A DNA stretch of 64,000 nucleotides from NCBI GenBank assembly GCA_963663965.2, contig CAXXFK010000042.1:64001-128000 (forward strand), read 5' to 3'. A program made the translations under genes and the position numbers. This stretch comes from Sedimentisphaerales bacterium. Its GTDB lineage: Bacteria; Planctomycetota; Phycisphaerae; Sedimentisphaerales; SM23-30. Shown here in pieces: positions 2,318 to 59,406 of the stretch (the stretch's first letter is position 1; each line of letters opens with the position of its first letter). The notes beneath the pieces were generated by a model, which was not told the origin of the DNA, ran no database searches, and saw nothing but the letters and a program-made list of their open reading frames with translations.

Positions 2318-2980
2318 TTAAATATTCGGATATAGTGATCTCAATTTACACCTGGCATCTTCCACTTTAAATTGCCAGTTAACGCCTCGTTGCTTTTCGT
2401 TGGAGTGGGTGGCCCATGCTTTCGTCTCTTTTTTCAGCCTATCCATGTCGGTCATTTTTCGATCCTTCAGACATTGCCGGGTCATCGCACTCAGTTCATT
2501 TTCGGCCACATTGAGCCAACTGCCATGCTTGGGCGTGTAATGAAATTCAATTTTTTCCACATACCGGCGCGCCTGCTCCGGAGGAAAAACCTCGTAAAAA
2601 GCTCCCTTGGTATGAGTATTCAAATTGTCGCACACCAGAAGCACTCGTTTCGCTTGGGCATAGCGGCCCTCCAGCAACTCTGCCATTTCAACGGCCCAGT
2701 CAACCTTTTTCCGTTGTGGACGAACGCTCACCCCACGCCAGCCGGATTTTGGTTCTGTGAACATGAATAGGCTGGCGGTTCCGGCACGTTCATATTCATA
2801 GTCCACTCGACGAGGATGATGCAAGGTCGCGGCCATCGGAGTGCGAGTTTCCTTGAGCAATTGCACCGGCTGTTCATCCATGCAGAGCGCCGGAAAATCC
2901 GGGTCATACGGCAGGGAATAGACATTCAGGACATCTTCCATGCACGCGACAAATTCACTGTTTTGCGCCGGCGGTATCAC
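2318..2980 (-). CDS. IS630 transposase, catalytic DDE part (orfB; probably joined to orfA by a -1 frameshift)
   Basis: Motifs CMDEQP, DYEYERAGT, VCDNLNTH, HYTPKHGSWLNVAENE. The frame continues upstream as KNEITNRKIQYWVIPP to the A7 run at 3012-3018. Confidence 0.9.
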   Translation of the reverse strand: MIPPAQNSEFVACMEDVLNVYSLPYDPDFPALCMDEQPVQLLKETRTPMAATLHHPRRVDYEYERAGTASLFMFTEPKSGWRGVSVRPQRKKVDWAVEMAELLEGRYAQAKRVLLVCDNLNTHTKGAFYEVFPPEQARRYVEKIEFHYTPKHGSWLNVAENELSAMTRQCLKDRKMTDMDRLKKETKAWATHSNEKQRGVNWQFKVEDARCKLRSLYPNI

Positions 2981-3003
2981 CCAGTACTGTATCTTTCGGT
3001 TCG

Positions 3004-3444
3004 TTATTTCATTTTTTTAAGCGTCGTGGCAACGGTGGTGTGACTGATGGATTCTACGATTCCCAATTCCACCGCTTTGTCGGCGATCAAACGCAACGAC
3101 CAATTACTGTAACCTTCCGGCGGATCGCTCAGCCTCAGGGCAATGATCTTTGCCTCCTGCTCGCCATCCAGCAGCTTGGCGCGAGGCGGCGTGTCACGCT
3201 GCTTACCGTTCAATGTGATGTCAAACCCTCTTTCTACCAGCGATTTACGAACTTTGGTTACGGTCCTGAGACGACACAAAAAAGCGTCGGCAATTTGATT
3301 GCAGGACCAGTTGGGACCGTCCGCATCCGCCTTAAGCAAGATTTGAGCCCGTTTGACTTTTTGCGAGGTGCCCTTGAGTTTTGTAACAACTTCAAGCAGC
3401 TCTTTCCGTTCTGCGTCAGTGAGACGAACGATGTACTTTTTCAT
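3004..3444 (-). CDS. IS630 transposase, N-terminal HTH part (orfA)
   Basis: MKKYIVRLTDAERKEL...RAQILLKAD...PPEGYSNWSLRLIADK...ISHTTVATTLKK; GGAG RBS before ATG 3444. Confidence 0.9.
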   Translation of the reverse strand: MKKYIVRLTDAERKELLEVVTKLKGTSQKVKRAQILLKADADGPNWSCNQIADAFLCRLRTVTKVRKSLVERGFDITLNGKQRDTPPRAKLLDGEQEAKIIALRLSDPPEGYSNWSLRLIADKAVELGIVESISHTTVATTLKKMK

Positions 3445-3753
3445 AACAAACTCCATAAATATTCGGTTTATGGAGTTATTATCGGACATGCTATATAAGA
3501 ATATTTAGTTTTTACAGAGCAGTAGGCATACTAGCTCACATTGTTAATTAATAACGATATTGTCGATTATCGCTGATGTGACGATACTATGAATAAAAAG
3601 GGAATTTGATGAATGAGACCTGGAATGACATATTAATATGTTTTAATGTGACCAGATAACTAAACGAATTTTGGACCAATAGCCAGTAAGTAAATAAACC
3701 TAATGATTAGCAAATCGATTGAATGGAGATCGATGCAACAAAAATTTGATCTG

Positions 3754-7701: not shown

Positions 7702-9042
7702 TCAGTCATCCAGTTTACGCAAAGAGAGGTTTTTCTGCCCCAGTTTCTGCTGGACTTCGACCAGACTGGTCTGGCCAAAGTTTTTGCATCCGAGCAGTTC
7801 GGCTTCGGTACAATTGCATAAATCACGGATAGAAATCACGTTGAGGCGTTCGAGGCATTTGCGCGACCGCACGGACAGTTCGAGGGAATCGATCGGTTTG
7901 TCGAGCAATTCCTGATCGGCTTTCTGGATATTGGCGGCCTGTTTTTTGGCGGCGCCTTTTTTGTTGTCTTCGAGCATCTGACCCAGTCGCAGGCCTTTGG
8001 TGCTGAGAATCTGTTTGATTTCCAACAGGCTGGTTTCGCCGAAGTTTTTGTAAGCAAGCAATTCGGCTTCAGTCACTTTCAGGAGGTCTCCAAGCGTGCG
8101 GATATTCATTTTTTTGAGGCAGTTGCGCGAGCGGACAGACAGTTCGAAGTCGGAAATGGGTATTTCCATCACTTTGTTGCGATGATCCGTTCTGCGTTCC
8201 TGATCTTCATCGTAGAACATGGTCATGCTGGATTGGAGGTCTTTCATGAACATATTCGCGCGCGGATGGTTGGGGAACGCTTTGAGGACTTGAGCGACGC
8301 ACTCGCTGGCTTTATAGAATTCGCCGCAATCTTCATAGAGCACCGACAGGTTGAGCAGGGCATTAATGGGAGCGCTGGGTGAATTGCCGATACACTGGAT
8401 ATAATATTCGATCGCTTCCTCTTCACTGCCATAAAGCGAACTGATATAGGCCAGGTGGAAGAGGGCTTCGGTATGGTTCGAGTCGAGTACAATGGTCTTT
8501 TTGAGGGTCTGGATCGCGTGGGTATGTTCGCCATTGTCATCCTGGATACGAGCCAGTTGATAATGATATTCCGCACGGAACTCGCCAACCCGTGAAACCC
8601 GTTTGAGTTTTTCAGCGGCTTCTTCGAGACGGCCTGACTGACGCAGGCAATTGACAATCGTCATGGCAGTATCGAAGCTGTCGGCGCCTTTTTCTTCGGC
8701 GGTTTCAAAGGCCTGGATCGCTTCGGCGAACAAGTTGGCTTTTTCAAGGGTGCGTCCTTTTAAGGTCAGGGCGGTAGAGGTGTTGCCGGCTTTATCCAGC
8801 CAGGTGGCCGCCTGTCGCCACTGGCACAGGGCAAAAAACCCCTGGCCGATTTTCATCGCCATCGACGGGTCGCTTTCCAGATCAGCGCCCCGGGCAGTGA
8901 TGGTATCGTTGAGATACTGGGAAAAAGCTTCCTGTTCGATTGCGTTACTGCGCACTTTGTTAATCAGCAGGTCGAACTCTTCGTTTGACAACGGAATGTT
9001 ATTAGTCAGCAATTCGGTGATAGTCATTTCCTGAACTTGCAT
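7702..9042 (-). CDS. TPR-repeat protein with two tandem RNA polymerase alpha-CTD-like domains
   Basis: N-terminal TPR-like helices, then ISDFELSVRSRNCLKKMNIRTLGDLL..TEAELLAYKNFGETSLLEI and IDSLELSVRSRKCLERLNVISIRDLC..TEAELLGCKNFGQTSLVEV; no alpha-NTD. Confidence 0.88.
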   Translation of the reverse strand: MQVQEMTITELLTNNIPLSNEEFDLLINKVRSNAIEQEAFSQYLNDTITARGADLESDPSMAMKIGQGFFALCQWRQAATWLDKAGNTSTALTLKGRTLEKANLFAEAIQAFETAEEKGADSFDTAMTIVNCLRQSGRLEEAAEKLKRVSRVGEFRAEYHYQLARIQDDNGEHTHAIQTLKKTIVLDSNHTEALFHLAYISSLYGSEEEAIEYYIQCIGNSPSAPINALLNLSVLYEDCGEFYKASECVAQVLKAFPNHPRANMFMKDLQSSMTMFYDEDQERRTDHRNKVMEIPISDFELSVRSRNCLKKMNIRTLGDLLKVTEAELLAYKNFGETSLLEIKQILSTKGLRLGQMLEDNKKGAAKKQAANIQKADQELLDKPIDSLELSVRSRKCLERLNVISIRDLCNCTEAELLGCKNFGQTSLVEVQQKLGQKNLSLRKLDD

Positions 9043-48545: not shown

Positions 48546-50924
48546 GTGAATATGCCATTATTAAGATATAATTTGGATATGCTGGGATGGTATGAGTTTG
48601 AACATTTATGCCAAACTCTACTCAAACATAAATTAAGTTTAGGAATTGAAGCTTGGGGAGGAACAAATGATTATGGACGAGATGCGTATTATACTGGAGA
48701 ATTAAAGTATCCAGGAAATGAAATCCAAAAGGGCCCATTTCTTTTTCAATGTAAGTTTATAAACGGAGCTAATTCTGCCTCAGCTAAGATTGAAAAACCT
48801 ATTTTAAATGCAGTTAAAAAGGAATGCCAACAAATTACAGATCGTCTAACAAGCAATAAATGGACAATTATTCCAACAGTGTATACTTTTTTGACGAATG
48901 CTGTTTTATCTTCAACTCTTAGAGAAAAAATAAAATCTCAAATAAAAGCAGTTTTACCAAATTCTGATATTGTCTTACTAGGTGGAAATGATATTTGTGG
49001 GTTCATTGATTTGACATCTGGCATAGCACGAAAATTTCCACAGATATTATCTCTTAATGATTTAGATATATTACTTGAACAATGTGTTAACCGGGACATA
49101 TTAAATAGGAGTGAGGCTGCAATAGAAGAAGCAAAAGAGATTAGCAAAGTATTTGTACCTACAGAAGCTTATTCGAAAGCCATTAAAACATTAAGAGAGC
49201 ATTTTTATGTAGTTCTTGAAGGACCACCTGAAGTTGGGAAAACTGCGATAGGAAGGATGATAGCGTTGTCATACTTACCAGAAGGATGGGAAGTAATCGA
49301 ATGCCAAGCTCCGAATGATTTCCTAAAAATATATAACAGGACACAAAAACAAATATTTATCACTGATGATTCTTTTGGTCGGACGGAATATAATCCTGAG
49401 AGGGTAAGGCTATGGCAAGATGATTTACCTGCAATTCTAAGAAAGGTCAATAAGGACCATTTACTTATAATGACCAGTCGAAAACATCTTTTGGAAATGG
49501 CAAAAGAAAAGCTTGATATTCCTGGATCTCATGAAGACTTTCCAAAGCTTTCAGAAGTGTTAATAGATGTATCACAGTTAATAAAAATTGAGAAGACTTT
49601 AATGCTTTATAAACATATGAAACAAGTTAAATTACCTGAAGATATCAAAGGTGTTGTTCGAGTATTTGCTGAAAAAGTTATTATGCATTCAGGATTCACG
49701 CCAGAACGGATTAGAGTACTCTCAAACAAAGTCAAAGCTGAAAAATTTTCTATTCAGCTAATCGATAATATTTTGAGAAATCCAACAGATAGAATGAGTA
49801 AAACATATCGAGAGTTGCCCGTAGCGTATAAATGGTTTATGGTATCTGTATTAATTAATCAATCAAATTATTATTCAGCACAATACCAAAACACGAAAAG
49901 GTCTTATGAAAAATTGTGCCCATTAGAAGAATTAGTAGATTTTGAAAAAATAATTGCACAGTTATCTGAAGCTTTCATAAAACTTAAAGAATACATTGGA
50001 AGCAATAAGCCTCAAATAGATTGGGTGCATCCGAGTTGTGGCGATATGGTTTCTAAAGAATTATCTTCATGTGCTATAGATCGAAAGCAATTTCTAGAAT
50101 TTTGCGGAGAGTCTGGACTAATGTTTGCAGTTTCAGTTGGTGGTGGAGATGTTGGACAGAGAGTATTGCCTTTATTAATAAGTTCGAAAGACTGGGAAAT
50201 ATTTGAGAAACGATGTCTAGCTTGTTATAATACAAATCTTCTAAATCGCATTTATGATTCGGTTCAACAATTATCCAAAACCCCAAACCATTATAAAGAT
50301 AAAGCAAAGCTTGAAATATTATTAAAAAAATCCTTGATAACAACAATAATACATATCAATGATAATGGAAGCATGTACAATAATCATATAAATATTTTTA
50401 GAATTGTTAAGCAATATTCAAATGAAAAACTGCCTCCTATAAATTATTATGAAGCGTGGTTAAGTGTGGCTGATTCTGCAATTGGGATTTTAAATGACGA
50501 TTATAAGGAATGGCATAAATGGGGTGACATAGACCATTTTATTTCTTTAACCAAAGTCATTTTAGAATATGATCCAACGTGTTTTGAAACGAATAATATG
50601 CGGGATAAATGGCAGGAATTTATAGCCACCTTGATCAAGCGAGGATTAGAAGTTTCTAATTATCAAATGTTTGAAGATGATCATGAAATGGTACAAGAGT
50701 TGTTTGAATGTTATGATGAGAGTAGTAAGCTTTTTAAAGATATATCTGCAATGATAGAAAGTGATGATGTTAAAGAACAGTGTAAAACTATTAGCAATAA
50801 TTTTAATTGTTTAATGGATGATATATCAGAATATTTACCATACGAAGGCGATGTTGGTAGTGATGAGAGTAGGGCATATTATGATAATGATTTTAGTGTG
50901 CAAAGTATTTTTAGAGACTTGTAA
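48546..50924 (+). CDS. Restriction-endonuclease-like N-terminus + STAND-type (nSTAND3-like) P-loop NTPase; candidate defence protein
   Basis: FEHLCQ...GTNDYGRDA...FQCKF (PD-(D/E)xK/Mrr-like); Walker A GPPEVGKT; Walker B IFITDDSFG; IMTSR; markedly AT-rich compared with its flanks. Confidence 0.75.
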   Translation: MNMPLLRYNLDMLGWYEFEHLCQTLLKHKLSLGIEAWGGTNDYGRDAYYTGELKYPGNEIQKGPFLFQCKFINGANSASAKIEKPILNAVKKECQQITDRLTSNKWTIIPTVYTFLTNAVLSSTLREKIKSQIKAVLPNSDIVLLGGNDICGFIDLTSGIARKFPQILSLNDLDILLEQCVNRDILNRSEAAIEEAKEISKVFVPTEAYSKAIKTLREHFYVVLEGPPEVGKTAIGRMIALSYLPEGWEVIECQAPNDFLKIYNRTQKQIFITDDSFGRTEYNPERVRLWQDDLPAILRKVNKDHLLIMTSRKHLLEMAKEKLDIPGSHEDFPKLSEVLIDVSQLIKIEKTLMLYKHMKQVKLPEDIKGVVRVFAEKVIMHSGFTPERIRVLSNKVKAEKFSIQLIDNILRNPTDRMSKTYRELPVAYKWFMVSVLINQSNYYSAQYQNTKRSYEKLCPLEELVDFEKIIAQLSEAFIKLKEYIGSNKPQIDWVHPSCGDMVSKELSSCAIDRKQFLEFCGESGLMFAVSVGGGDVGQRVLPLLISSKDWEIFEKRCLACYNTNLLNRIYDSVQQLSKTPNHYKDKAKLEILLKKSLITTIIHINDNGSMYNNHINIFRIVKQYSNEKLPPINYYEAWLSVADSAIGILNDDYKEWHKWGDIDHFISLTKVILEYDPTCFETNNMRDKWQEFIATLIKRGLEVSNYQMFEDDHEMVQELFECYDESSKLFKDISAMIESDDVKEQCKTISNNFNCLMDDISEYLPYEGDVGSDESRAYYDNDFSVQSIFRDL

Positions 50925-51033
50925 GATTTTTTGCATTTAGCATTGTGAGCTAAAATGTAGTTCTTTCATTTATTGAAAATAAGGGAAGATATTCCGATTA
51001 GGCCCAGAAGAACCCGGATTTTGCTTTGCTCAA

Positions 51034-51057
51034 AATGGACCAACAAGTTTGCCCATT
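51034..51057. repeat. REP-like palindrome type A, degenerate copy
   Basis: AATGGACCAACAAGTTTGCCCATT, related to 52265-52286. Confidence 0.55.
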
Positions 51058-51103
51058 CTCTTCTATCGGCTAGCACATTAATTATTGTTGTGGGATATTT
51101 GGT

Positions 51104-52114
51104 ATGAAATCAGGTAATGATAAAGTTCGCAAGATATTTATATCAAGTCAGGATTTAGGAAACTGGGATGTGATTAAGTTTTTGGAATCGCTTCATTCGT
51201 TGGGGATGATTTATGAATATGCAGATGATTATTGTGCAAATATTCAATCGGTCATAGCAAGGAATGATATTTTTGTTGCGGTCATATCTGAGGCTTATAT
51301 TCGTTCTAAAGCAATGGCAGAGCAAGTGCAATATGCTGTTCAGTTATGGGAGGAATACAAACGGCCGTTGCTTTTTATATTTAGGATAGATAAAACACCT
51401 TTATTTCATGATTTTGGGGTTTTAACGCATACAGCCCAGGAATTGCCAATGAAGCCCGGAAGAGCCGCCGCAAAACTACTGGTTGCAAAGGGGAAGAAAC
51501 CAATAGAAATACTTAAATCGGGGATAGATGCGCCTGACTTTCAAGAATATATGGAAATACTTTCACGCGAGATGGGATTGGCAAGATTTACAAATCATGT
51601 CGAGTCTTCCACGGTATTGCGTATTTTATTTAGGCCGACATTTGATCCAGAATGCGTGGTTGAAATAAGATGGAATGAACAAAATGTGATAATGGTTTTA
51701 ATTTCGATGCAAACGAATGTCGAGCAGTGGGAATGTTATGTGCGTCAAAGCCGATCAGGAAAATGGCATCCACTAAAGCCTGCCCCCGATCCACCAGAGT
51801 TATGGAAAGAAGAAATTGTTTTACCCCATGATGTATTATTTGAATTGAAGTGGATGATCATTGATTCAACCTGGAGAGAGGCAATGAATGCTCAAGCTTC
51901 ATCAAGAACTAATTCTATTTGTGATGGGATGGGGATGGATATCGATATGTATAGCGGGGGGAAAGTCAACTCAATATTTTATAATTGTCCAGATCTCGGC
52001 ACGCCGATTCATACATTCGTTAGTCATGTTTTAATATTAGCAAAATCAGAATTCATATTGCCGAAAAGTAAGGCTTTGATTGAAAAATTATTGAGGTATA
52101 CCGTATGGGAATGA
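51104..52114 (+). CDS. Protein with an N-terminal TIR-like domain and an unknown C-terminal domain
   Basis: KIFISS...IQSVIARNDIFVAVISEAYIRSKAMAEQVQYA...LLFIFRID pattern. Confidence 0.6.
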   Translation: MKSGNDKVRKIFISSQDLGNWDVIKFLESLHSLGMIYEYADDYCANIQSVIARNDIFVAVISEAYIRSKAMAEQVQYAVQLWEEYKRPLLFIFRIDKTPLFHDFGVLTHTAQELPMKPGRAAAKLLVAKGKKPIEILKSGIDAPDFQEYMEILSREMGLARFTNHVESSTVLRILFRPTFDPECVVEIRWNEQNVIMVLISMQTNVEQWECYVRQSRSGKWHPLKPAPDPPELWKEEIVLPHDVLFELKWMIIDSTWREAMNAQASSRTNSICDGMGMDIDMYSGGKVNSIFYNCPDLGTPIHTFVSHVLILAKSEFILPKSKALIEKLLRYTVWE

Positions 52115-52264: not shown

Positions 52265-52402
52265 ATGGGCAAACAAGTTTGCCCATCTTCTTTTCGTTTT
52301 GTGATAAAATGATAACGGGTGTTTTTTCACGCTGAAGCGTGGGCTCCGTACATTGGTTTGGGGTTGGGAGAGAGACGCGAGGCGTTGCGTCTTTACGTGG
52401 GG
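52265..52402. repeat. Cluster of REP-like palindromes (types A, B and C)
   Basis: ATGGGCAAACAAGTTTGCCCAT (52265-52286); CACGCTGAAGCGTG (52328-52341); GGTTGGGAGAGAGACGCGAGGCGTTGCGTCTTTACGTGGGG (52362-52402). Confidence 0.65.
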
Positions 52403-52577: not shown

Positions 52578-54134
52578 ATGAGTACTGAAGAAAACGGGCG
52601 TGAAACGGTAGAGGCAAGTGGTCCGGAAGAGAAAGAATCGAAGCGCGAGGCGGGCCGGCCGGGACGGGGGCCGAAGCGTCGATTGCGGCGGAGTTGGGGG
52701 GGCTGGATTGGAGTGCTGACGCGCCGGGGGCTCTGGCTGGGGTTGGTGGCGGCGGTGGTGGCGATACCGATGGTGTGGCGGTTTATGCCGCAGCAATACG
52801 AGGCGACGGTGGCTGTTCAGATCAAGAAGATAATAAACAGCTTCATTTTTGGTGATGAGACGACGGATCGGCCGATGCCGAATTATGAAAGTTTTCGGAA
52901 TACCCAGGCGGAATATCTAGTCAGTCCACTTGTTATGGATGAAGTGGCTAATCAATTGGGAAAAGAGAAAATCTCTCTAAATATTTTAAGGGCTAAACCT
53001 GATGGTTTCTTTCGATTATTGAAAGAAATCTGGATACGTAAAGACTTGTCGCTCTGGTTCCGGGAGAGTTCTGGACTTGAGAATCGACTTATGAAGCTGG
53101 TCGATAACGGGACGATTGTTGCGGTTCCGCAACCTGACAGCGAAATGATAACAGTGACAATGAGGCATACAGATCCAGACGAGGCGCTGCGAATTGTGAG
53201 AGCGATTTGTATGGCATATATGCTGAAGATTGTCAGGCCGATGGAAGTTCATGAGACTGGGAAATTACGTGATTTACATGTTGAAAAGGATCAGTTTTGC
53301 AGATCTATACTGAATTTACGGGAAAGGATTCAGGAAATTGCTATGAAATATGGCACAGGCGATCTGGAGCGGTGGCAGGAAGTTACGATGGAACGCAAAG
53401 TGGCAATTGCTAAGAGAGTCGGTGAACTGGAACGGGAAAAGGTCGCTATCGAAGGTGAGCTGGCTAAACTGGAAGGACAGAATGGTACGGAATCGTCGAT
53501 TCCAGCAGTAGAAGATGAACTACTCAAGCAGGATTATATTAATAAGGATCCGCAGGTACAAAGCCTGATCCGAAATATCATTGAAGTACAGGAGCAGCTA
53601 ATTAAGGCTCATGAAATACTAAGTGAACAAAATCCGGAGCTGTGTCGGCTGCAAAACAGGCTGGTTCTATTACAATCAGCGTTGAATAAACGTAAGACGG
53701 AACTGGAACAGAGCTATTATGAGTTGCGGATGGGGGGGGCTGGTGCGGTAAGCAGTGTAGCTATGGCCCAAGCGATCAGGGAAGAGCCTATGCGATCGAT
53801 CAAAGAGCAGTTGGAGAACCGCGACGATGAGCTTGACAAGTTAAAGACAGAATTAGAAAGACTGGAGAAAGATTATAAAAACGCGGGCCGGGATTTATTG
53901 GAAATGTGGCAACGGCAAGATGACCTGACAATTCTTAAGCCAATATACGACAGGATAATGACTCGAATATATCAATTGGAAATTGAATTGTCAAGACGGC
54001 CGGGCCGGATTGAGGTGCCGTATGAACCGACATCAAATGCGTTGCCTGATCTGCGCGGGTGGATTACGTTCTGGCTGGGTGGTGGGATTGGGGTGGCGGT
54101 TGTTGGGATCTTTCTGTTGCGGAAGGTTGGTTGA
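52578..54134 (+). CDS. GumC/Wzc-N-like polysaccharide co-polymerase-type membrane protein without a kinase domain
   Basis: N-terminal TM, QYEATVAVQI, FRNTQAEYLVSP, SEMITV, long coiled coil, C-terminal TM. Confidence 0.65.
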   Translation: MSTEENGRETVEASGPEEKESKREAGRPGRGPKRRLRRSWGGWIGVLTRRGLWLGLVAAVVAIPMVWRFMPQQYEATVAVQIKKIINSFIFGDETTDRPMPNYESFRNTQAEYLVSPLVMDEVANQLGKEKISLNILRAKPDGFFRLLKEIWIRKDLSLWFRESSGLENRLMKLVDNGTIVAVPQPDSEMITVTMRHTDPDEALRIVRAICMAYMLKIVRPMEVHETGKLRDLHVEKDQFCRSILNLRERIQEIAMKYGTGDLERWQEVTMERKVAIAKRVGELEREKVAIEGELAKLEGQNGTESSIPAVEDELLKQDYINKDPQVQSLIRNIIEVQEQLIKAHEILSEQNPELCRLQNRLVLLQSALNKRKTELEQSYYELRMGGAGAVSSVAMAQAIREEPMRSIKEQLENRDDELDKLKTELERLEKDYKNAGRDLLEMWQRQDDLTILKPIYDRIMTRIYQLEIELSRRPGRIEVPYEPTSNALPDLRGWITFWLGGGIGVAVVGIFLLRKVG

Positions 54135-54183: not shown

Positions 54184-54285
54184 GGTTGGGAGAGAGACGC
54201 GAGGCATCGCGTCTCTACGTGGGGCATTTGAGATTTGAGAGATCAGCCTTTTGTCTTTAAGGAGGGATAGCACGCTGAAGCGTGG
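54184..54285. repeat. REP-like palindromes (types C and B)
   Basis: GGTTGGGAGAGAGACGCGAGGCATCGCGTCTCTACGTGGGG (GTAG-type on the minus strand) and CACGCTGAAGCGTGG at 54271-54285; match the copies at 52328-52402. Confidence 0.7.
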
Positions 54286-54308
54286 ATTCCTTACGTGGAG
54301 TTCGAACT

Positions 54309-55673
54309 TCAGCTGAAGCGTTGGCTGAGGCGGTTGAGGATGGTTTCGGTTTCCCATTGGGGGTGACGGGAGCATTGGGCGGTTTCGCTGGCGGTGTTGC
54401 CCAGGTTGATGACGATGCCGGATTTTTTTTCGATGGTGTTCCAGGAGCAGAACTGGATATCGTGATGTTCTGACATCTGAATGATCTGGGCGCGGAGAGC
54501 GGGCCGGCCGCGATTGGCGCGGAGGTAAGGGGGCGCGACGGGCGGAACGCCGGGCAGGCGATGGTTGAGCAGGCCGTTGCGGTCGAGGCGATCGAAGTGG
54601 CCGTCTGCAACCAGGCCGAAGCGGATATCGATTTCTTTGAGCCGGGTGGCGATTTGGGGATCGATCACGGCGCAGCCAGTCAGGTCGCAGCCGGTGAAGT
54701 TCCGCATGAGATTGAGTTTGATGGCCCAGTCGAGCCGGTCGGAGACCGCTAGCGGTCCGGCGGCCAGCAGGTCCAGGGTTTCCTGCCAGAGTTGGCAGGC
54801 ATAACCGGCCCAGGGCGGCAGGTGTTCGGAGTGAAGGTGGGCGCGGACGATATCGAGATAGCGGCGCTGGATGCCCAGGGCGCTGTCGTGGGCGCCTCCG
54901 GCAAGCCGGACAGTCCGGGTCAGATCGAGGGTGGCGGTGAAGTCATTGAAAACCTGTAGTTCGCTATTTTCCAGAAAATCCACCGGTGGGCGAGAAAGCA
55001 AGCCGGCTTCGATCAGTTTAAGGATCAAGGCCGTGGTCGCGTATTTTAAAAAGAGAGCGGTTTGCGAAAACAGGCTGTCGCCGTGATTGATGTGGATCGA
55101 ACAGCGCCGATCCGGTTCGCGGCGGATGCAGGTGTCGATAATGGTGCGCTGTTTGGGGCCGTTGACACCGGTGAGATGGCGAACACGGGGTGACAGGGTG
55201 AACCAGGCGTTATCCATATGTTTGTAGTCGAGGCCGCCCGATCCGGTATAGATGATCCGTGAGACGAGATGGGGCATGATCTGCCGGGCGTAGGCACTGG
55301 CCTGAGGGCGGGTACTCTGGTAATTTTCGTGGCAGCCCCAGGTGTGACCGAGGTAATCGACATTGGTCCGGATCAGCTGGAATTCGCATGCCTGTGCTTC
55401 GCGGGCGAGGATGTCTTCGATGACTTTGAGGTTGTAGATGAGGTCCCAGGGATTGAAACATTCGCAGGTGCAGCCTTCGGGATGGTGGCCGGCGTCGATG
55501 TAGAATCGGCCCCACTCCCAGAAGAAGCCGTTGGGTCCGGGCAGGGTATGGTAGTTGGCCTGGCAACGGGACAATAGCCCAGGAGCGAGGCGCTCCTGAG
55601 CTTTACGGCTGTACCCGAGAATGCCGAATTCGCGTTCTTCACCAAAACAGCACATGGATTCAATACGGGTCAT
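54309..55673 (-). CDS. PafA/Dop-family (Pup ligase-like) protein
   Basis: FGEEREFG (GxExEFG), GRFYIDAGHHPEGCTCEC, TNVDYLGHTWGCHENY, LVSRIIYTGSG, SPR, HINHGDS, LKYATTALIL, ALGIQRRYL, LDWAIKL, C-terminal W. Confidence 0.87.
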   Translation of the reverse strand: MTRIESMCCFGEEREFGILGYSRKAQERLAPGLLSRCQANYHTLPGPNGFFWEWGRFYIDAGHHPEGCTCECFNPWDLIYNLKVIEDILAREAQACEFQLIRTNVDYLGHTWGCHENYQSTRPQASAYARQIMPHLVSRIIYTGSGGLDYKHMDNAWFTLSPRVRHLTGVNGPKQRTIIDTCIRREPDRRCSIHINHGDSLFSQTALFLKYATTALILKLIEAGLLSRPPVDFLENSELQVFNDFTATLDLTRTVRLAGGAHDSALGIQRRYLDIVRAHLHSEHLPPWAGYACQLWQETLDLLAAGPLAVSDRLDWAIKLNLMRNFTGCDLTGCAVIDPQIATRLKEIDIRFGLVADGHFDRLDRNGLLNHRLPGVPPVAPPYLRANRGRPALRAQIIQMSEHHDIQFCSWNTIEKKSGIVINLGNTASETAQCSRHPQWETETILNRLSQRFS

Positions 55674-55828
55674 TCGCCGGACTCCTGCTCGACGCGTTCG
55701 CGCAGGAAGGTCTGGCTGTCGGACGAAAGGGCATCCTGGATGATCTGGCTGCCCATCTGCAACAGGGACGTTTCATTCTGACGATTGACATCGGTGCGAC
55801 AACATTTTTCACTTTCTGTCATAGGCAT
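55670..55828 (-). CDS. Pup/UBact-like small protein modifier, 52 aa (not in the ORF track)
   Basis: Manual translation MPMTESEKCCRTDVNRQNETSLLQMGSQIIQDALSSDSQTFLRERVEQESGE*; AAGGAG RBS 8 nt upstream; its TGA overlaps the ATG of the PafA-like gene (ATGA). Confidence 0.85.
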   Translation of the reverse strand: MPMTESEKCCRTDVNRQNETSLLQMGSQIIQDALSSDSQTFLRERVEQESGE

Positions 55829-55876
55829 GGGTAATTCTCCTTAAATGACATGGTTGGGATTAATAGACAGGTAACA

Positions 55877-57670
55877 CTATGAATTCGGATCCGAAACGTT
55901 TAAGTTATCGATCATTTGTAACAGGCGCTGGTTGAGCAGATGAACGCAGGTTTGCAGATCAGGCTTGCCGTAGAACCAGTCCAGAGGGTAGCGGATTTTG
56001 AGATCGGCGAGTTCGGCGTCGATACGGCTGTTGGCGAAACGGTTGTAACGGGTGAACAGCAGCCGCTGCTGGACGCGGGGCAGGAAATAGCGCAGCAGGA
56101 TTTCCCAGCCGGGCCGGTCGCGGTAGTCGGAAATGTCGGGATATCCGCAGACAATAGCCGGGGAGAGGCTGTCGCCGGAGTATTGCCGGCCGAGGAAAGC
56201 CACCAGCAATTCGGCAGAATAGCTGATGGTCAATGATTCGGGATTAAAATGGTCGGACCGGATCAGATCAACGGCCATCTCGTTACGGTAGTAATCGAGA
56301 ATGGGGATCAGGCGCTGATGCATGTCGTGCATTCTGGTGATCTTGTCGGGTGTGGCAATGAGGATGAGTCTCAGACCGGGCTTGCGCCGGCATTCATGAT
56401 GGAGCAGCGAAATGGTTTGGGGATCGATCGGGGTATCCGTTTTTAAAACGTGGGATTCCGATTCGAATTTCCGGCGTGTTTCGCGACATTCATATTTGAC
56501 GCTCTGGCTGGTGGTGAGCTGTTCGATCCGGGTGAGGATATCGGGCAATAAGGGGTGGACGGCTGCCTGTGTTTGCGCGTTCTGGCGGGCCAGTTTGTAA
56601 TAGCGCAAGGCGGTTCTTTTTTCGCCGGACAGATCGCCCAGTCGGTGATAAACCGGGACAAAGAATCGGTGGCCGGCGCAGCAGGTACGCCTGAGAATGC
56701 TCAGCGCGCGGCTATAGCATTTGCGCGCCAGGGTGTGGTGTCCCGTGCGGTAGTACCATTCGCCGCGCAGGCGGAAGTAGACGGCGAAGTCCGGATGGTT
56801 TAATTTGCGGTAGGTCTGCCAGAGCAGTCTGCCGGTATTTTTCAGGTATGCCCTAGTGGTGAGGATGGCATCAGGTCCCTCCAATTCGAGCTTGCATTCC
56901 GCCAGGGTCAACATGGCGCGGACCACCTGAGGGCTGGCCATGGCGTAGTTTTTGATGAAATGAGCGAGCGCCTGTACGGACAGGGTTTGGGCCTGCCGCC
57001 AGTTGCCGGCGAGGGCATGGAGTTCGGCGATGTGGTGCTGAATTTCCATGGTGCGTGAATGGTGGGCGCCGTAGCACTGGACGAAATCGGCATGGGCCTT
57101 ATTGAGAATGAACAGGGCATCGTTGTAATAGCCCAGCTCGACCAGCAGGCTGCCCAGTCGGTAAAAGGCGTGTGCCGTATTGCTGTCTCGAACGGGGTAT
57201 CGGGTATTATAGTACTGAATAGCGGGTTTGATCAGTTGGTAGGCGGCTTGGTAGTCGCCATAGCGGGTGTGGATACAGGCCGCATTGACCTGATAAAATG
57301 CGCGGTTCGAACTGCTGTTGGGCATGCCGAGTACCTGGGAGATTAAAACCACGGCCTGGTTAAACTCGGCCAGTTCCATCAGGCAGATACTCAGGTTGTT
57401 GAGATAGGTCGTATCGTTGGGCGTCTGCTCGAGAGCCTGGATATAGGCCTGGGTGGCTTCGGTGAGATGGCCCGCCCGTTTGGAGGACAGTCCCAGCCAG
57501 TTGTAGATATCCGCCACGCCGGAGGGCCGATCGTCAGGCGGAATGCGATAGAAGCAGGCCAGCGCCATGCGGTAATAGCGGGCAGATTTGCGGAATTCGC
57601 CACGAGTAAAACATTCTCCGCCCGCACTGCAGCAGGCAGTCATACGCTCCTTTGGGGTTACCATAGACAC
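55877..57670 (-). CDS. TPR-repeat protein with a C-terminal DUF4062/TIR-like domain
   Basis: Multiple TPRs (IYNWLGL..K..G...EA..AY..AL, YLNNLS, AFYRLGSLL..LG.Y..AL, HPDFA); C-terminal LRLILIAT...LLVAFLGRQY...YP....YRDR..WE resembles DUF4062. Confidence 0.7.
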   Translation of the reverse strand: MSMVTPKERMTACCSAGGECFTRGEFRKSARYYRMALACFYRIPPDDRPSGVADIYNWLGLSSKRAGHLTEATQAYIQALEQTPNDTTYLNNLSICLMELAEFNQAVVLISQVLGMPNSSSNRAFYQVNAACIHTRYGDYQAAYQLIKPAIQYYNTRYPVRDSNTAHAFYRLGSLLVELGYYNDALFILNKAHADFVQCYGAHHSRTMEIQHHIAELHALAGNWRQAQTLSVQALAHFIKNYAMASPQVVRAMLTLAECKLELEGPDAILTTRAYLKNTGRLLWQTYRKLNHPDFAVYFRLRGEWYYRTGHHTLARKCYSRALSILRRTCCAGHRFFVPVYHRLGDLSGEKRTALRYYKLARQNAQTQAAVHPLLPDILTRIEQLTTSQSVKYECRETRRKFESESHVLKTDTPIDPQTISLLHHECRRKPGLRLILIATPDKITRMHDMHQRLIPILDYYRNEMAVDLIRSDHFNPESLTISYSAELLVAFLGRQYSGDSLSPAIVCGYPDISDYRDRPGWEILLRYFLPRVQQRLLFTRYNRFANSRIDAELADLKIRYPLDWFYGKPDLQTCVHLLNQRLLQMIDNLNVSDPNS

Positions 57671-57702
57671 ACACTCCCCTGGAAATAGTATAGAGTTAGT
57701 TG

Positions 57703-58005
57703 TTATTCAGTCGGGTAATAGCTTTCAATCAGTTTGAGTGAGCGGGCCGCCCGGCCTTCGCCGGGATGGCGGTCCAGAAACACTTTTAAAAGCGACTGGC
57801 ATTGTCGATATTGTTTTCGGTATAATAACAATGCCGCCAGAAGATCGGTATACCGCCAGTTGTCATCTGACGGTTGGTTCGATGTGGCACGCAGCATATC
57901 GATCGCCATATCGAAATGGCCATGCCGAATCAGTGTTCTGGCCTGGCGATACAGGCTGAATAAATTTCCCTTGTTCATCGTTGATACCTGTTTATAATTA
58001 TTCAT
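57703..58005 (-). CDS. Small TPR-like helical protein
   Basis: LYRQARTLIRHGHFDMAIDML...LLAALLLYRKQYRQCQSLLKVFLDRHP; co-oriented first gene of the operon. Confidence 0.65.
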   Translation of the reverse strand: MNNYKQVSTMNKGNLFSLYRQARTLIRHGHFDMAIDMLRATSNQPSDDNWRYTDLLAALLLYRKQYRQCQSLLKVFLDRHPGEGRAARSLKLIESYYPTE

Positions 58006-58299
58006 TGCGATAGAAAACTTACCGTTGCTTATTGCAACACTGATGGTATACTAAACATAAAGTTTTTTGAGAAGCTCTTAAGCAAGTTCTAAATAAATTA
58101 ATAGCAAGGAAACGGGCCCTTGCCAGTCTTAGTATTTCGCCTGAGTCGAAACGCTTTAAGCCAATCGATATTTTGCCTGAAAAGGTCGAAAATAATCAAT
58201 GTTGACTTTGGCAGATGAGAAGAAATTATCGTGATTGGCCGCAATAAAGGTGATTATAAGCGAGGTTCATGTAAAAAAAATAAAAAAGGGTAGAGAATC

Positions 58300-59406
58300 A
58301 TGAAAATTGAATTCTGTCTGCAGGAACTGATCAAGAAGCATAATATCAATTCGTACGGTTTACAGCGCAAGCTGGCGGAGAAAACGAAAAAACACACCCA
58401 GACCATCGCTAAAATAGTGAATAACCAGGCGTCGGCGCTTTCGGTAGAGACCCTGGAAATTATCTGCGAGTGGCTGGTGGATAATGGGGTGCCGGCCAAG
58501 GATTTGCCGCAGGCCTTGTTCAAGCAGACATCGTATGGCTTGTTTGATGCCCTGACCCACAAGAAAAACATGATCGTTTACCTGGGTGAGTCTTGTCAGC
58601 AGAGCCCGGACAAAGGGCCGGCGATTCGCTGGATTTCGCGTCGTGACGCCCAGGTGGAGAATCTGATTGTCAAGGAACTTTCCAGACAGTCCGCCCCTTT
58701 GACGATCGAGACGCGTTATGTTTCGGCCACGTTCAAGTATCATCCGGAAATGAATTATGAGGCTGAAGCGGCCAAGGATATTGAGAATTCCCGGGTATTG
58801 TATCAGGATATGGCGGGCCGGGTCGATCAAAGCGCCATGGTTCTGATCGGATCACAGCGGGCCAATTACCTGGTGGAACATTATATTGCCAACATGTTTC
58901 ATTGCCGGCCGTTTCAGCCGACAGCCAATCCGGGGGAAGAGGTGCCGTTTTATATCCGCTTCCGCAGCAAAGATCCGAATCTGGCCAGCGTATTTGGCGG
59001 GGCTGAATTGCCGGGGGGGTATGATGAAGATACGGATGAGGCCGGGATTCTGTTTCGTAATACAGAGAACAAGTGGGTATTCTGGCCGTGGGAGGAAAAG
59101 AAGCAATATGTCGCCCTGGCGATTGTGGAGTATACTCCGGGTCCGCAGAATATTGTCGTCTGTCTGTTTGGCTTTTCAGGCATGGCGACTGAATTGGTGG
59201 GTGAGTGTTTGGTTCGACAGGAGATCGATGGATTGTGGCCGCCCAGGATTCAGATTAAAAAGAAAAAGTATTCGATTGTGCTATGCAAATTCACGGTGCC
59301 GGAAGGATTCGATCTGGAAAACAACAAAGATTTTAATCTGATCGATAAAGAATTTGTCAGTCTGAATCATGAGATAGTCAAAAATCATATGAAGACCAAT
59401 AAGTGA
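58300..59406 (+). CDS. Cro/C1-type HTH regulator with a large uncharacterised C-terminal domain
   Basis: LQELIKKH..LQRKLAEKTKKHTQTIAKIVNNQASALSVETLEIICEWL; divergent from the TPR-Pup-PafA operon. Confidence 0.75.
   Translation: MKIEFCLQELIKKHNINSYGLQRKLAEKTKKHTQTIAKIVNNQASALSVETLEIICEWLVDNGVPAKDLPQALFKQTSYGLFDALTHKKNMIVYLGESCQQSPDKGPAIRWISRRDAQVENLIVKELSRQSAPLTIETRYVSATFKYHPEMNYEAEAAKDIENSRVLYQDMAGRVDQSAMVLIGSQRANYLVEHYIANMFHCRPFQPTANPGEEVPFYIRFRSKDPNLASVFGGAELPGGYDEDTDEAGILFRNTENKWVFWPWEEKKQYVALAIVEYTPGPQNIVVCLFGFSGMATELVGECLVRQEIDGLWPPRIQIKKKKYSIVLCKFTVPEGFDLENNKDFNLIDKEFVSLNHEIVKNHMKTNK

Follow-up and report, generated by a model that had tools for sequence, protein, structure and literature searches.

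Pupylation is known almost exclusively as the pathway that feeds the actinobacterial proteasome. In the genome of a Sedimentisphaerales bacterium, a short operon carries a Pup-like tag and a PafA-type ligase beside two TPR-type genes, and the question that this locus raises is what such a pair might do with no proteasome, ARC or Dop gene to accompany it. We analyzed the whole stretch of DNA in which the operon lies (64,000 nucleotides, hereafter the window), the rest of the genome (7.24 Mb, 94.6% complete), and related loci. The explanation that we place slightly above even probability is that the locus is a reduced Pup-type conjugation module, which would tag proteins non-degradatively and in which the TPR proteins would act as specificity or sensing parts.

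A tag-ligase operon

Four co-oriented genes and a divergent HTH gene had been described in an earlier note on this DNA, and all five open reading frames are present. On the minus strand lie, in order, the gene for a 100-aa TPR-like protein (57703-58005), which ends 32 nt before the gene for a 597-aa TPR protein (55877-57670), followed by the 52-aa tag gene (55670-55828) and the gene for a 454-aa PafA-type carboxylate-amine ligase (54309-55673). The successive intergenic gaps are 32, 48 and -4 nt, and all four reading frames are intact; a Shine-Dalgarno sequence, AAGGAG (55837-55842, minus strand), can be read directly 8 nt before the tag ATG, and the tag stop and ligase start overlap as ATGA, an arrangement that, as read from the sequence, couples translation of the ligase to that of the tag. 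The GC content of the tag, ligase and 597-aa TPR genes is 54-60%, and that of the 100-aa TPR gene is 47%, near the genome value of 48.6%. A 41-nt hairpin-bearing repeat (family D1; 54184-54224), one of two copies in the genome (the other at 52362-52402), lies just downstream of the ligase stop between convergent genes and may function as a terminator.

On the plus strand, the gene for a 368-aa XRE-type HTH protein (58300-59406) is separated from the operon by a divergent intergenic region of 294 nt (58006-58299), the presumed promoter or operator, in which promoter-like matches are not enriched (8, versus 4.8 +/- 2.0 in shuffles). The protein matches HTH_26 at 22.3 bits (cut-off 22) and HTH_3 at 19.0 bits in Pfam, its ESM features lie near XRE-regulator clusters (score 0.85, a lead only), and it is possibly the regulator of the operon. 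Its C-terminal domain is uncharacterised.

The tag, whose C-terminal end is ...FLRERVEQESGE (...ESGE), was evaluated against profiles built from the tags of other loci. A 7-tag profile, from which the window tag was left out, matched it at E 1.6e-8 (runner-up E 1.5 among the window's 1443 six-frame segments), and a 34-tag profile matched it at E 1.7e-7, the sole match among the genome's 164,033 six-frame segments. A match so far beyond chance bears out the claim of a Pup-like tag, and by its sequence we regard the 52-aa open reading frame as a real one. The C-terminal 30 or so residues align with the family; the N-terminal MxxRER motif and Gly/Pro-rich linker (about 25 columns) are missing, so that the tag, which starts MPMTESEK, is without half of the family's conserved length. 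No family in Pfam or NCBIfam, including the Pup models PF05639 and TIGR03687 and the UBact model NF033388, matched it at E<=10. Its SGE ending may resemble that of UBact; by profile the tag sits in the Pup-like family and not in UBact (a genome-wide UBact scan gave no match, in a run whose controls matched nowhere either). Because the last residue is already Glu, no deamidase would be needed. By its profile match the tag belongs to the family of the ARC/Dop-like/tag/PafA-like cassettes as defined in this analysis, and at 52 aa, ending SGE and overlapping the ligase start, it also falls within the Pup-like tags as an excerpt of Iyer et al. (2008, PMC2588565) defines them, namely 50-90 aa with a C-terminal G[EQ] and an adjoining PafA-family gene.

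The ligase matches PF03136 (Pup_ligase) at 187.8 bits (cut-off 25), with residues 48-414 on profile positions 70-440. In NCBIfam it scores higher on TIGR03686 (PafA, 142.8 bits) than on TIGR03688 (Dop, 132.3 bits), both far below cut-off; the PafA equivalog cut-off is 551.3 bits, and a true actinobacterial PafA scored 564.2 bits on the same model in the same library. Its PDB matches are Dop and PafA. At 59 of the 79 columns conserved at >=85% the family residue is kept, and the retained GxExE, metal/ATP and catalytic residues include G11, E13, E15, Y58, D60, H64, E66, E71, N104, D106, H115, E116, R139, R163, R176, E186, H194 and Q269. The 20 columns that differ include the NG pair at positions 53-54 and a C-terminal Pro; a 100%-conserved Arg column aligns to S192, a mismatch that may reflect an alignment shift, given the RR pair two residues upstream. 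By the features that discriminate PafA from Dop (Table 1 of PMC7947786), the spacing from E15 to position 53 is 38 residues (PafA reference 41, Dop reference 103), indicating that there is no Dop-loop; D60-A-G-H-H64 shows the PafA-like D-x-G-x-H spacing, with an extra residue after the catalytic Asp, and a His stands at the start of the alpha-loop (H166 in R-H-L). In trees, the ligase falls inside the A-type (PafA-like) clade (SH-aLRT 96-97) on a very long branch (1.66-1.97 substitutions per column), its basal placement among the non-actinobacterial PafA-like ligases being poorly supported and within no starred subclade. We therefore classify its sequence as PafA-type and not Dop-type, in agreement with the earlier note. 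At 454 aa it is shorter than the ligases of the relatives' cassettes (about 510-570 aa).

Complex prediction for ligase plus tag gave an ipSAE of 0.33 (best control 0.00), in runs sharing at least 74% of contacts and with a partner pLDDT of at least 49. The pass mark was calibrated on solved complexes, of which 116 of 157 reach it, and on mismatches, of which 2 of 215 do; scores <=0.60 comprise just 18 of the 157 solved complexes plus both passing mismatches, so that the support is weak, and because a solved PafA-Pup complex exists the pass may reflect likeness only.

The long branch, the 20 changed columns and the shortened tag with its lost N-terminal motif would also fit a decaying remnant, that is, a horizontally acquired ARC/Dop-like/tag/PafA-like cassette that has shed ARC and Dop, leaving a drifting, non-working tag and ligase with TPR genes as unrelated neighbours. 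We think it unlikely that the operon has decayed in this way. Four intact frames, tight spacing, the ATGA overlap and a consensus Shine-Dalgarno sequence argue against it, as do the metal/ATP-binding residues and catalytic Asp, all of them kept, and the tag has retained exactly the C-terminal half that aligns with its family and ends in Glu.

Absent partner genes and related cassettes

The window contains no proteasome, ARC or Dop gene, as had been claimed for prcA/prcB, ARC/Mpa and dop, and the search of the full 7.24 Mb came out equally empty. The operon's ligase is the only PF03136 gene in the genome (there is no second Pup_ligase), matches to the proteasome family PF00227 number zero, and no ARC-type ATPase exceeds the cut-off (best TIGR03689 match 130 versus 504.75 bits); the best AAA matches are FtsH, TPR-AAA and plain AAA proteins, none with OB domains. 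At 94.6% completeness, the genome sequence could still be missing a distant Dop or ARC gene.

In a metagenome survey, 67 of 80 loci hold a tag match, and in most of the 80 a tag of this family lies directly upstream of a PafA-like ligase. The survey thereby exposed a large family of Pup-like tags, which are listed in public annotation as hypothetical only. Among the 37 informative loci (those with at least 4 kb upstream), a Dop-like gene is found in 35 and ARC in 34, and the layout of tag plus ligase with neither is found in none. What is unusual at our locus is the absence of Dop and ARC, not the absence of the proteasome. The latter is not special, because the related ARC/Dop-like/tag/PafA-like cassettes are also without linked proteasome genes (four of seven cassette genomes have no PF00227 match, and the other three have one on another contig); the earlier note's comparison with Pup and UBact loci that cluster with proteasome genes does not hold for these nearest relatives. 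Nor is the missing proteasome the novelty, since pairs of Pup and ligase genes unlinked to a proteasome had been noted as early as 2008 (PMC2588565, in excerpt). The cassettes come from soil and sediment metagenomes and from genomes of the same phylum, and their ligases are named 'PafA2 family' or 'proteasome accessory factor A'.

The nearest relatives of the ligase share only 34-46% identity with it, and the family, order and class of the organism yielded none. Its own 90% cluster, in a collection of 5.8 billion proteins, has one member on one contig, so that there is no orthologous locus to show an arrangement kept by selection; the tag-ligase-TPR arrangement is seen in one genome only. The singleton cluster, the layout's absence from all 37 informative loci, and the lack of relatives in the same family, order and class (suggestive of an isolated acquisition) are further points in favor of decay.

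The lack of close relatives bears differently on another alternative, quite improbable in our estimation, namely that pupylation here is of the ordinary housekeeping or regulatory kind known from corynebacteria without a proteasome: metabolism would be regulated by modifying a handful of cellular proteins, another AAA+ machine would read the tag, and the defence neighbours would be coincidental. Corynebacterium glutamicum pupylates without a proteasome, and a physiological role for such pupylation has been documented there (PMC8223512, in excerpt); related cassettes, moreover, are widely distributed among soil and sediment bacteria and resemble core machinery. However, the corynebacteria retain Dop and ARC (as the dop knockouts and unfolding described in the same excerpt attest), both of which are missing from the window's genome; a core function would not be expected to lack relatives throughout the family, order and class; and the TPR protein that is the partner here may carry a TIR/DUF4062-like domain.

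TPR proteins and neighbouring genes

The N-terminal 370 or so residues of the 597-aa protein consist of TPR arrays (TPR_12 61.5, TPR_2 47.4 and TPR_19 40.1 bits, all above Pfam cut-offs). For the 100-aa protein, which had also been called a TPR protein, the gene stands and the TPR matches are all sub-threshold (TPR_14 23.2 versus 23.5 bits, TPR_6 23.0 versus 26.3 bits, in Pfam). The TPR part of the description of the 597-aa protein as TPR plus DUF4062/TIR-like is likewise secure, and its second part is a possibility: the C-terminal 215 or so residues (55880-56518) make up an alpha/beta domain that belongs to no named family and in which Pfam finds neither DUF4062 nor TIR (residues 391-597 are without a match even at E<=10). 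Three leads point weakly to a DUF4062/TIR-like fold. ESM features are nearest TIR_2 clusters (0.85, a lead only); hhalign against the DUF4062 region of locus L092 gives a probability of 13% (pairwise E 0.0022) with beta1 and GxxYG-like motifs in register; and the AF2 model of the domain (pLDDT 50.5) has a beta-alpha-beta pattern, for which the best Foldseek match is a 'cryptic TIR' (E 0.023, not significant). The architecture is shared by two full-length homologues, P0247 and P0246 (the latter 25% identical across 538 aa; pairwise E 3e-43), and in P0242 the C-terminal domain stands alone.

The neighbourhood survey for TPR/DUF4062 partners that the earlier note had proposed found the association elsewhere. 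Fused TPR domains (Pfam) occur in 5 of 119 other ligase homologues among those listed. In the locus survey, L087, L114 and L131 have TPR-fused ligases; in L092 a DUF4062 plus TPR gene lies directly upstream of the ligase and a TIR gene downstream, and in L107 a TPR_12 gene lies directly upstream. A TPR link to the PafA-like ligase family thus recurs independently in other ligase lineages, which again argues against decay with chance neighbours.

The proposal of a defence-island context survives in part. A neighbouring nSTAND3 protein gene (48546-50924), 3.4 kb away, matches the PADLOC-DB 2.0 candidate family PDC-S73 at 144.9 bits; in the same database the ligase, tag, both TPR proteins and the HTH protein match no family. 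The nSTAND3 and TIR-like neighbours have a GC content of 32% and 38%, compared with 54-60% for the tag, ligase and 597-aa genes, which points to separate acquisitions. The GC difference and the lack of database matches to the operon also fit housekeeping pupylation, and for the operon itself a possible defence role is suggested by its context; the inducible, anti-phage behaviour proposed in the earlier note would be conjectural. A stronger version, speculative and in our view unlikely, is a conflict module in which a TPR/TIR-like sensor would direct the ligase to tag phage or host proteins irreversibly, disabling them without a protease, as part of a wider, undescribed alliance of PafA-like ligases with NLR-like TPR/DUF4062/TIR proteins (L092, L105, L107 and L087).

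Proposed function and comparison with known systems

Under the favored explanation, a reduced module for non-degradative tagging, the ligase would, by homology, use ATP to phosphorylate the terminal gamma-carboxylate of the tag and then attach it to lysine side chains on target proteins. With no Dop-like hydrolase, ARC/Mpa unfoldase or proteasome, and with a tag that is without MxxRER and linker, tagging would probably not lead to unfolding or degradation and would not be reversed by a known route; it might instead block, relocate or mark the target, in the service of defence or stress regulation. The two co-transcribed TPR proteins would probably confer specificity or act as sensors, either by recruiting targets to the ligase as adaptors or by being its tagged or regulated partner. 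A narrower reading, which we hold to be very unlikely, is that the enzyme's only substrate is the tag or the TPR protein (self-tagging, a partner switch or small-amine ligation), with no general protein tagging. Strict co-transcription with one large partner and the divergence of the C-terminal and surface positions of the ligase are consistent with it, and the conserved Pup-like tag, translationally coupled to the ligase, stands against it; to our knowledge, the pairing of a Pup-like tag with its ligase has meant protein ligation wherever tested.

Because tag and ligase are kept and TPR partners added, the locus would be a natural minimal system for studying Pup-type tagging alone and how a PafA-type ligase is aimed. 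Proximity-tagging tools already use PafA, and their makers might be interested in a tag-ligase pair that is small, self-contained and equipped with an adaptor.

Ubiquitin-like conjugation in anti-phage defence is carried out by E1/E2/JAB-type systems, for example Bil and CBASS Cap2. If the TPR/TIR-like partner is a sensor, this theme of bacterial immunity would reach a chemically unrelated ligase family. The likeness is in concept only, a dedicated enzyme conjugating a small tag in an accessory region near defence-type genes; chemistry and fold are unrelated, the window's ligase is GS-type and not E1/E2, and the window contains no ThiF, E2 or JAB gene. Closer in composition are the long PafA-like ligases fused to TPR domains or neighboured by TPR, DUF4062 or TIR genes (L087, L092, L105, L107, L114 and L131, with further TPR-combined members P0022, P0063, P0096, P0116 and P0117), which combine TPR arrays and ligase as the window does. 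Unlike the window, however, these mostly have TPR fused to the ligase or a neighbour with an N-terminal DUF4062; most do not have their own tag gene alongside, and many are found close to a complete cassette. In the tree, the ligase of the window is not particularly close to the main 'long' clade.

Plesiocystis and Rhodopirellula have, as excerpted from Iyer, Burroughs and Aravind (2008, PMC2588565), a Pup-like gene adjoining a single ligase and unlinked to proteasome genes, as in the window. In those two organisms the ligase contains a transmembrane insertion of four helices and has a membrane protein linked to it (same excerpt), whereas the ligase of the window is without this insertion, its alignment running uninterrupted over Pfam positions 70-440. 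The non-actinobacterial ARC/Dop-like/tag/PafA-like cassettes share the A-type ligase clade and the tag family with the window and are likewise without adjacent proteasome genes, differing in that their tags have the MxxRER motif and linker. Compared with the actinobacterial Pup-proteasome system, the window and genome are without Dop, ARC/Mpa and 20S, TPR genes stand in the operon, and the tag ends SGE, with one extra residue before its end; the two systems have in common a small disordered tag ending G[EQ] that adjoins a PF03136 ligase with GS-like catalytic residues, and in both that ligase is of the PafA type, with no Dop-loop and with PafA-like spacing around the catalytic Asp.

Operon structure and missing partner genes

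The earlier note had placed four co-oriented genes and a divergent regulator in this part of the window, and the reading frames bear out all five. On the minus strand lie a 100-amino-acid (aa) open reading frame (ORF; 57703-58005), whose Pfam matches to TPR families are near threshold only; a 597-aa ORF (55877-57670) with TPR_12, TPR_2 and TPR_19 above cut-off; a 52-aa ORF ending in SGE (55670-55828); and a 454-aa ORF (54309-55673) that matches Pup_ligase with 187.8 bits against a cut-off of 25, the HMM check of the proposed PafA-family ligase thus being positive. The first two intergenic gaps are 32 and 48 nucleotides, and the tag and ligase genes share four (ATGA, tag stop and ligase start); on direct reading of the sequence, AAGGAG stands 8 nucleotides 5' of the ATG of the 52-aa ORF. 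A spacer of 294 nucleotides separates the operon from the divergent 368-aa ORF (58300-59406; HTH_26, 22.3 bits, cut-off 22), and a promoter and terminator scan gave results no better than those for shuffled sequence.

The genome (7.24 Mb in 42 contigs, with 5.4% contamination) contains one Pup_ligase gene. No proteasome-family gene was found in it by a search that was positive in 10 of 14 control genomes, no ARC gene reached cut-off, and the Dop-like profile matched only the window ligase, weakly. The absence of proteasome, ARC and Dop genes reported for the window therefore extends to the genome as assembled (94.6% complete). Its top AAA+ matches are FtsH, a TPR-AAA protein and a plain AAA protein, all without the proteasomal-ATPase OB domains of the ARC proteins encoded beside related ligases. 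The second-best match to the profile of those ARC proteins is a 459-aa TPR and AAA protein without OB domains (G000:C18:47770-49149 in this genome; L003:1003-2382 in the locus numbering).

Related cassettes and the tag

Relatives of the ligase belong to a conserved cassette comprising an ARC gene with OB domains, a Dop-like gene, a tag and a PafA-like gene. The cassette is widespread in metagenomes (loci L059-L138) and in genomes of the same phylum (L038-L044); examples are L060:6396-11587 and L083:6343-11680. Across the 80 metagenome loci we found a tag match in 67, a Dop-like gene in 56 and ARC in 42. Where at least 4 kb was present upstream of the ligase (37 loci, some of them near-duplicates and so not independent), a Dop-like gene was present in 35 and ARC in 34, and tag and ligase stood alone in none. 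No proteasome genes were seen beside the cassettes, either by a weak BLAST search with one reference or in Pfam scans of the neighbours at eight loci, and seven cassette-bearing genomes of the phylum have either no PF00227 match (four genomes) or a single one on another contig (three). Because the cassettes lack adjoining proteasome genes and four of seven genomes lack PF00227, the absence of a proteasome is a group-wide trait, one foreshadowed in print by findings on Plesiocystis and Rhodopirellula (PMC2588565) and on C. glutamicum (PMC8223512). The earlier description of a pupylation-like operon without proteasome genes is hence correct as to the absence but not as to its being distinctive; the distinguishing marks of the window locus are the missing Dop and ARC genes and the loss of the N-terminal half of the tag.

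These losses bear on the possibility that the locus is a decaying remnant, as does the state of the ligase, which keeps 59 of the 79 columns conserved at 85% or more in a 77-row alignment, including GxExE, Y58, the catalytic D60, H64-P-E66, E71, N104, D106, H115-E116, R163, R176, E186, H194 and Q269. Its departures include an invariant Arg aligned to S192 (with an RR pair two residues upstream), an NG pair and a C-terminal Pro. With both the losses and the retained residues in view, we consider a remnant unlikely, though not far-fetched.

The 52-aa ORF matches nothing in Pfam or NCBIfam, even at E ≤ 10, and its identification comes from comparison with small ORFs ending GG[QE] that sit between two Pup_ligase paralogues in same-phylum relatives of the ligase. 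A profile of seven tags, the window tag left out, recovers it at E 1.6e-8 (runner-up E 1.5 among 1443 six-frame segments of the window), and a 34-tag profile returns it as the sole match in the whole genome (E 1.7e-7; runner-up E 9.3 among 164,033 six-frame segments). Judged by sequence, then, the ORF is a genuine, Pup-like tag, as the earlier note had proposed. At E ≤ 0.001 the tag family numbers 766 proteins; the 120 listed members are all devoid of Pfam domains, and the only source-given name is 'hypothetical protein'. Members are 63-68 aa long: an N-terminal MxxRER is followed by a linker rich in Gly and Pro and by a helix-forming C-terminal part ending RQxGG[QE], whose likeness to the C-terminal end of the Pup encoded next to Dop in an Actinobaculum record is plain to see. 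Of this pattern the window tag retains only about the C-terminal 30 residues, with one additional residue close to its terminus, which reads SGE; SG[EQ] termini also occur in a few relatives (metagenome loci L093, L094, L095 and L119). The SGE ending, which we take to be a UBact-like feature, suggested an assignment of the tag to UBact, but this was rejected on the profile evidence, by which the tag groups with the Pup-like family ending GG[QE].

Several other Pup_ligase loci came to light in the comparison. Directly 5' of a third, divergent Pup_ligase group in the phylum are small ORFs ending ...RRRNTSGE and ...RRRNDSGQ (L046:10718-10921 and L047:8904-9188), neither with an NCBIfam match at E ≤ 0.01. 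The Actinobaculum massiliense record (L055-L058) holds five Pup_ligase-family matches, one above the PafA cut-off, one above that for Dop, and two others that were scored and fell below both. Several genomes of the phylum have JAB, TIR_2 and ThiF (E1-like) genes no more than a few kilobases from Pup-type cassettes (L038:13873-15147, L040:503-3375, L041:2727-3797 and L043:9986-10879), possibly a co-location of two unrelated tagging chemistries.

TPR partners and genomic surroundings

The linkage with TPR genes recurs at other ligase loci. TPR domains are fused to 5 of 119 other listed ligase homologues, TPR-fused ligases are found at L114 and L131, and at L107 a TPR_12/TPR_10 gene lies directly 5' of the ligase (all three metagenome loci). 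TPR-linked ligases are scattered over the tree, and the association therefore arose more than once; most of the long ones have no adjoining tag gene of their own. An alternative, that the locus performs ordinary regulatory pupylation and its neighbours are unrelated, we judge improbable.

Other arrangements occur at the metagenome loci L087, L092, L105 and L107. L087:5103-16821 has a full cassette followed by three tandem long PafA-like ligases (776, 819 and 786 aa) and by TPR and LRR/HEAT proteins. L092:4699-12648 has a ThiF (E1-like) gene, a 1067-aa DUF4062, TPR_12 and TPR_MalT protein directly 5' of a 723-aa PafA-like ligase, and TIR_2 downstream, and looks like an NLR-like/TIR conflict locus around a Pup-type ligase. 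At L105 and L107 the gene immediately 3' of a long PafA-like ligase encodes a large protein with a phosphofructokinase-like domain (L105:4538-6670 and L107:4098-6275), the one at L105 having a fused N-terminal TIR_2 domain.

The DUF4062/TIR-like domain that the earlier note had seen in the 597-aa protein was not recovered by Pfam, which found neither family in the whole protein, nor either at E ≤ 10 in its last 207 residues. Three leads point towards such a domain: ESM features place the C-terminal domain nearest to TIR_2 clusters (score 0.85); hhalign against the bona fide DUF4062 of L092 gives a probability of 13% and a pairwise E of 0.0022, and brings both the first strand and a motif resembling GxxYG into register; and an AF2 model from a four-row alignment, of low confidence (pLDDT 50.5), has a beta-alpha-beta pattern and a top Foldseek match to a 'cryptic TIR' (E 0.023; no match at E ≤ 0.001). 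Because each lead is non-significant alone, a DUF4062/TIR-like alpha/beta domain is plausible but unproven. A single-sequence AF2 model of the whole protein (pLDDT 44.4) is of too low quality for its fold to be assigned with confidence. Relatives that share the architecture of the 597-aa protein along its full length are P0246 (25% identical over 538 aa) and the similar P0247; P0242 is a stand-alone counterpart of the C-terminal domain. A word-based search with that domain returned only the 597-aa protein itself, and a phylum scan with the alignment containing the protein was dominated by TPR matches, all non-self matches falling in profile positions 13-380 or so.

The defence-island context is upheld in part. 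In its favour, the PADLOC candidate PDC-S73 aligns with the whole length of a 792-aa nSTAND3 protein (48546-50924; 144.9 bits), beside which a 336-aa protein gives a TIR_2 match short of cut-off (24.6 against 28). Against it, PADLOC matched no operon protein, and this pair (48546-52114) is low in GC (32% and 38%), whereas the genome stands at 48.6%, the ligase gene at 59.6%, the tag at 54.1%, and the 597-aa and 100-aa TPR genes at 56.5% and 47.2%. Because the GC of the pair departs from that of both the genome and the ligase operon, the region has the look of a mosaic built from separate insertions, and not of a single island. No tRNA or integrase gene lies nearby, and the papers found link pupylation to anti-phage defence in passing at most. 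Of the readings compatible with the data, a defence role is the boldest, and we give it little credence.

A Wzz-like 518-aa gene (52578-54134) was weighed as a further component and set aside: it runs convergently, its GC is typical of the genome, and it is flanked by repeats of its own. These include a 41-nucleotide hairpin-bearing repeat (52362-52402 and 54184-54224; 93% identical), of which the genome holds only these two copies, with further repeat positions at 52328-52351 and 54271-54294. Elsewhere in the window, an unusual 446-aa fusion (7702-9042, minus strand) joins TPR repeats to two RNA polymerase alpha C-terminal domains, and near the window start (2318-3489, minus strand) is a two-ORF insertion-sequence-like unit with a DDE_3 transposase and HTH_32/HTH_29.

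Proposed function and comparison with PafA and Dop

The ligase scores far below both NCBIfam cut-offs (PafA, 142.8 bits against 551.3; Dop, 132.3 against 492.3), in a library where actinobacterial PafA and Dop references score 564 and 582. In the trees that the earlier note had called for, it falls inside a non-actinobacterial PafA-like clade (support 96-97), apart from the Dop-like paralogues, from actinobacterial PafA and Dop and from a third group. It stands on a very long branch (1.66-1.97), its basal placement within the clade is unresolved, and it has no special subclade affinity. Among the matches listed from a 5.8-billion-protein collection the nearest are 34-40% identical, and the ligase forms a cluster of one. 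The ligase had no match in the genomes sampled from its family, order and class, and matches in 42 of the 401 sampled across the phylum; a search of species genomes for close-relative loci returned one actinobacterial PafA only. By sequence, the ligase is PafA-type but divergent.

Complex prediction (ipSAE) gave 0.33 for ligase with tag against 0.00 for the best control, which is weak support, with at least 74% contact agreement between runs and partner pLDDT of at least 49; because a solved PafA-Pup complex exists, this pass may reflect likeness to it. The pairing and the divergence of the ligase both bear on a further alternative, a narrow enzyme that modifies itself or a partner, which we hold to be the least probable of those considered. 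The best reading, and one to which we incline with reserve, is a Pup-type tagging module in reduced but working form. The coupled PafA-type ligase would activate the terminal Glu of the tag and join it to lysines, the TPR proteins would select or sense, and the outcome would be non-degradative, with no reversal by Dop. The observation made in the earlier note is thus confirmed and its interpretation supported in part, and the locus merits a simple co-expression test.

Measured against Table 1 of PMC7947786, the window ligase lacks the Dop-loop and is PafA-like in the extra residue after its catalytic Asp and in the His at the start of the alpha-loop. By the known Pup chemistry a terminal Glu makes deamidation needless (PMC7947786), and because the C-terminal residue of the window tag is already Glu, no such step is needed here. 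The locus is a variant of Pup-type tagging, so far in a single genome.
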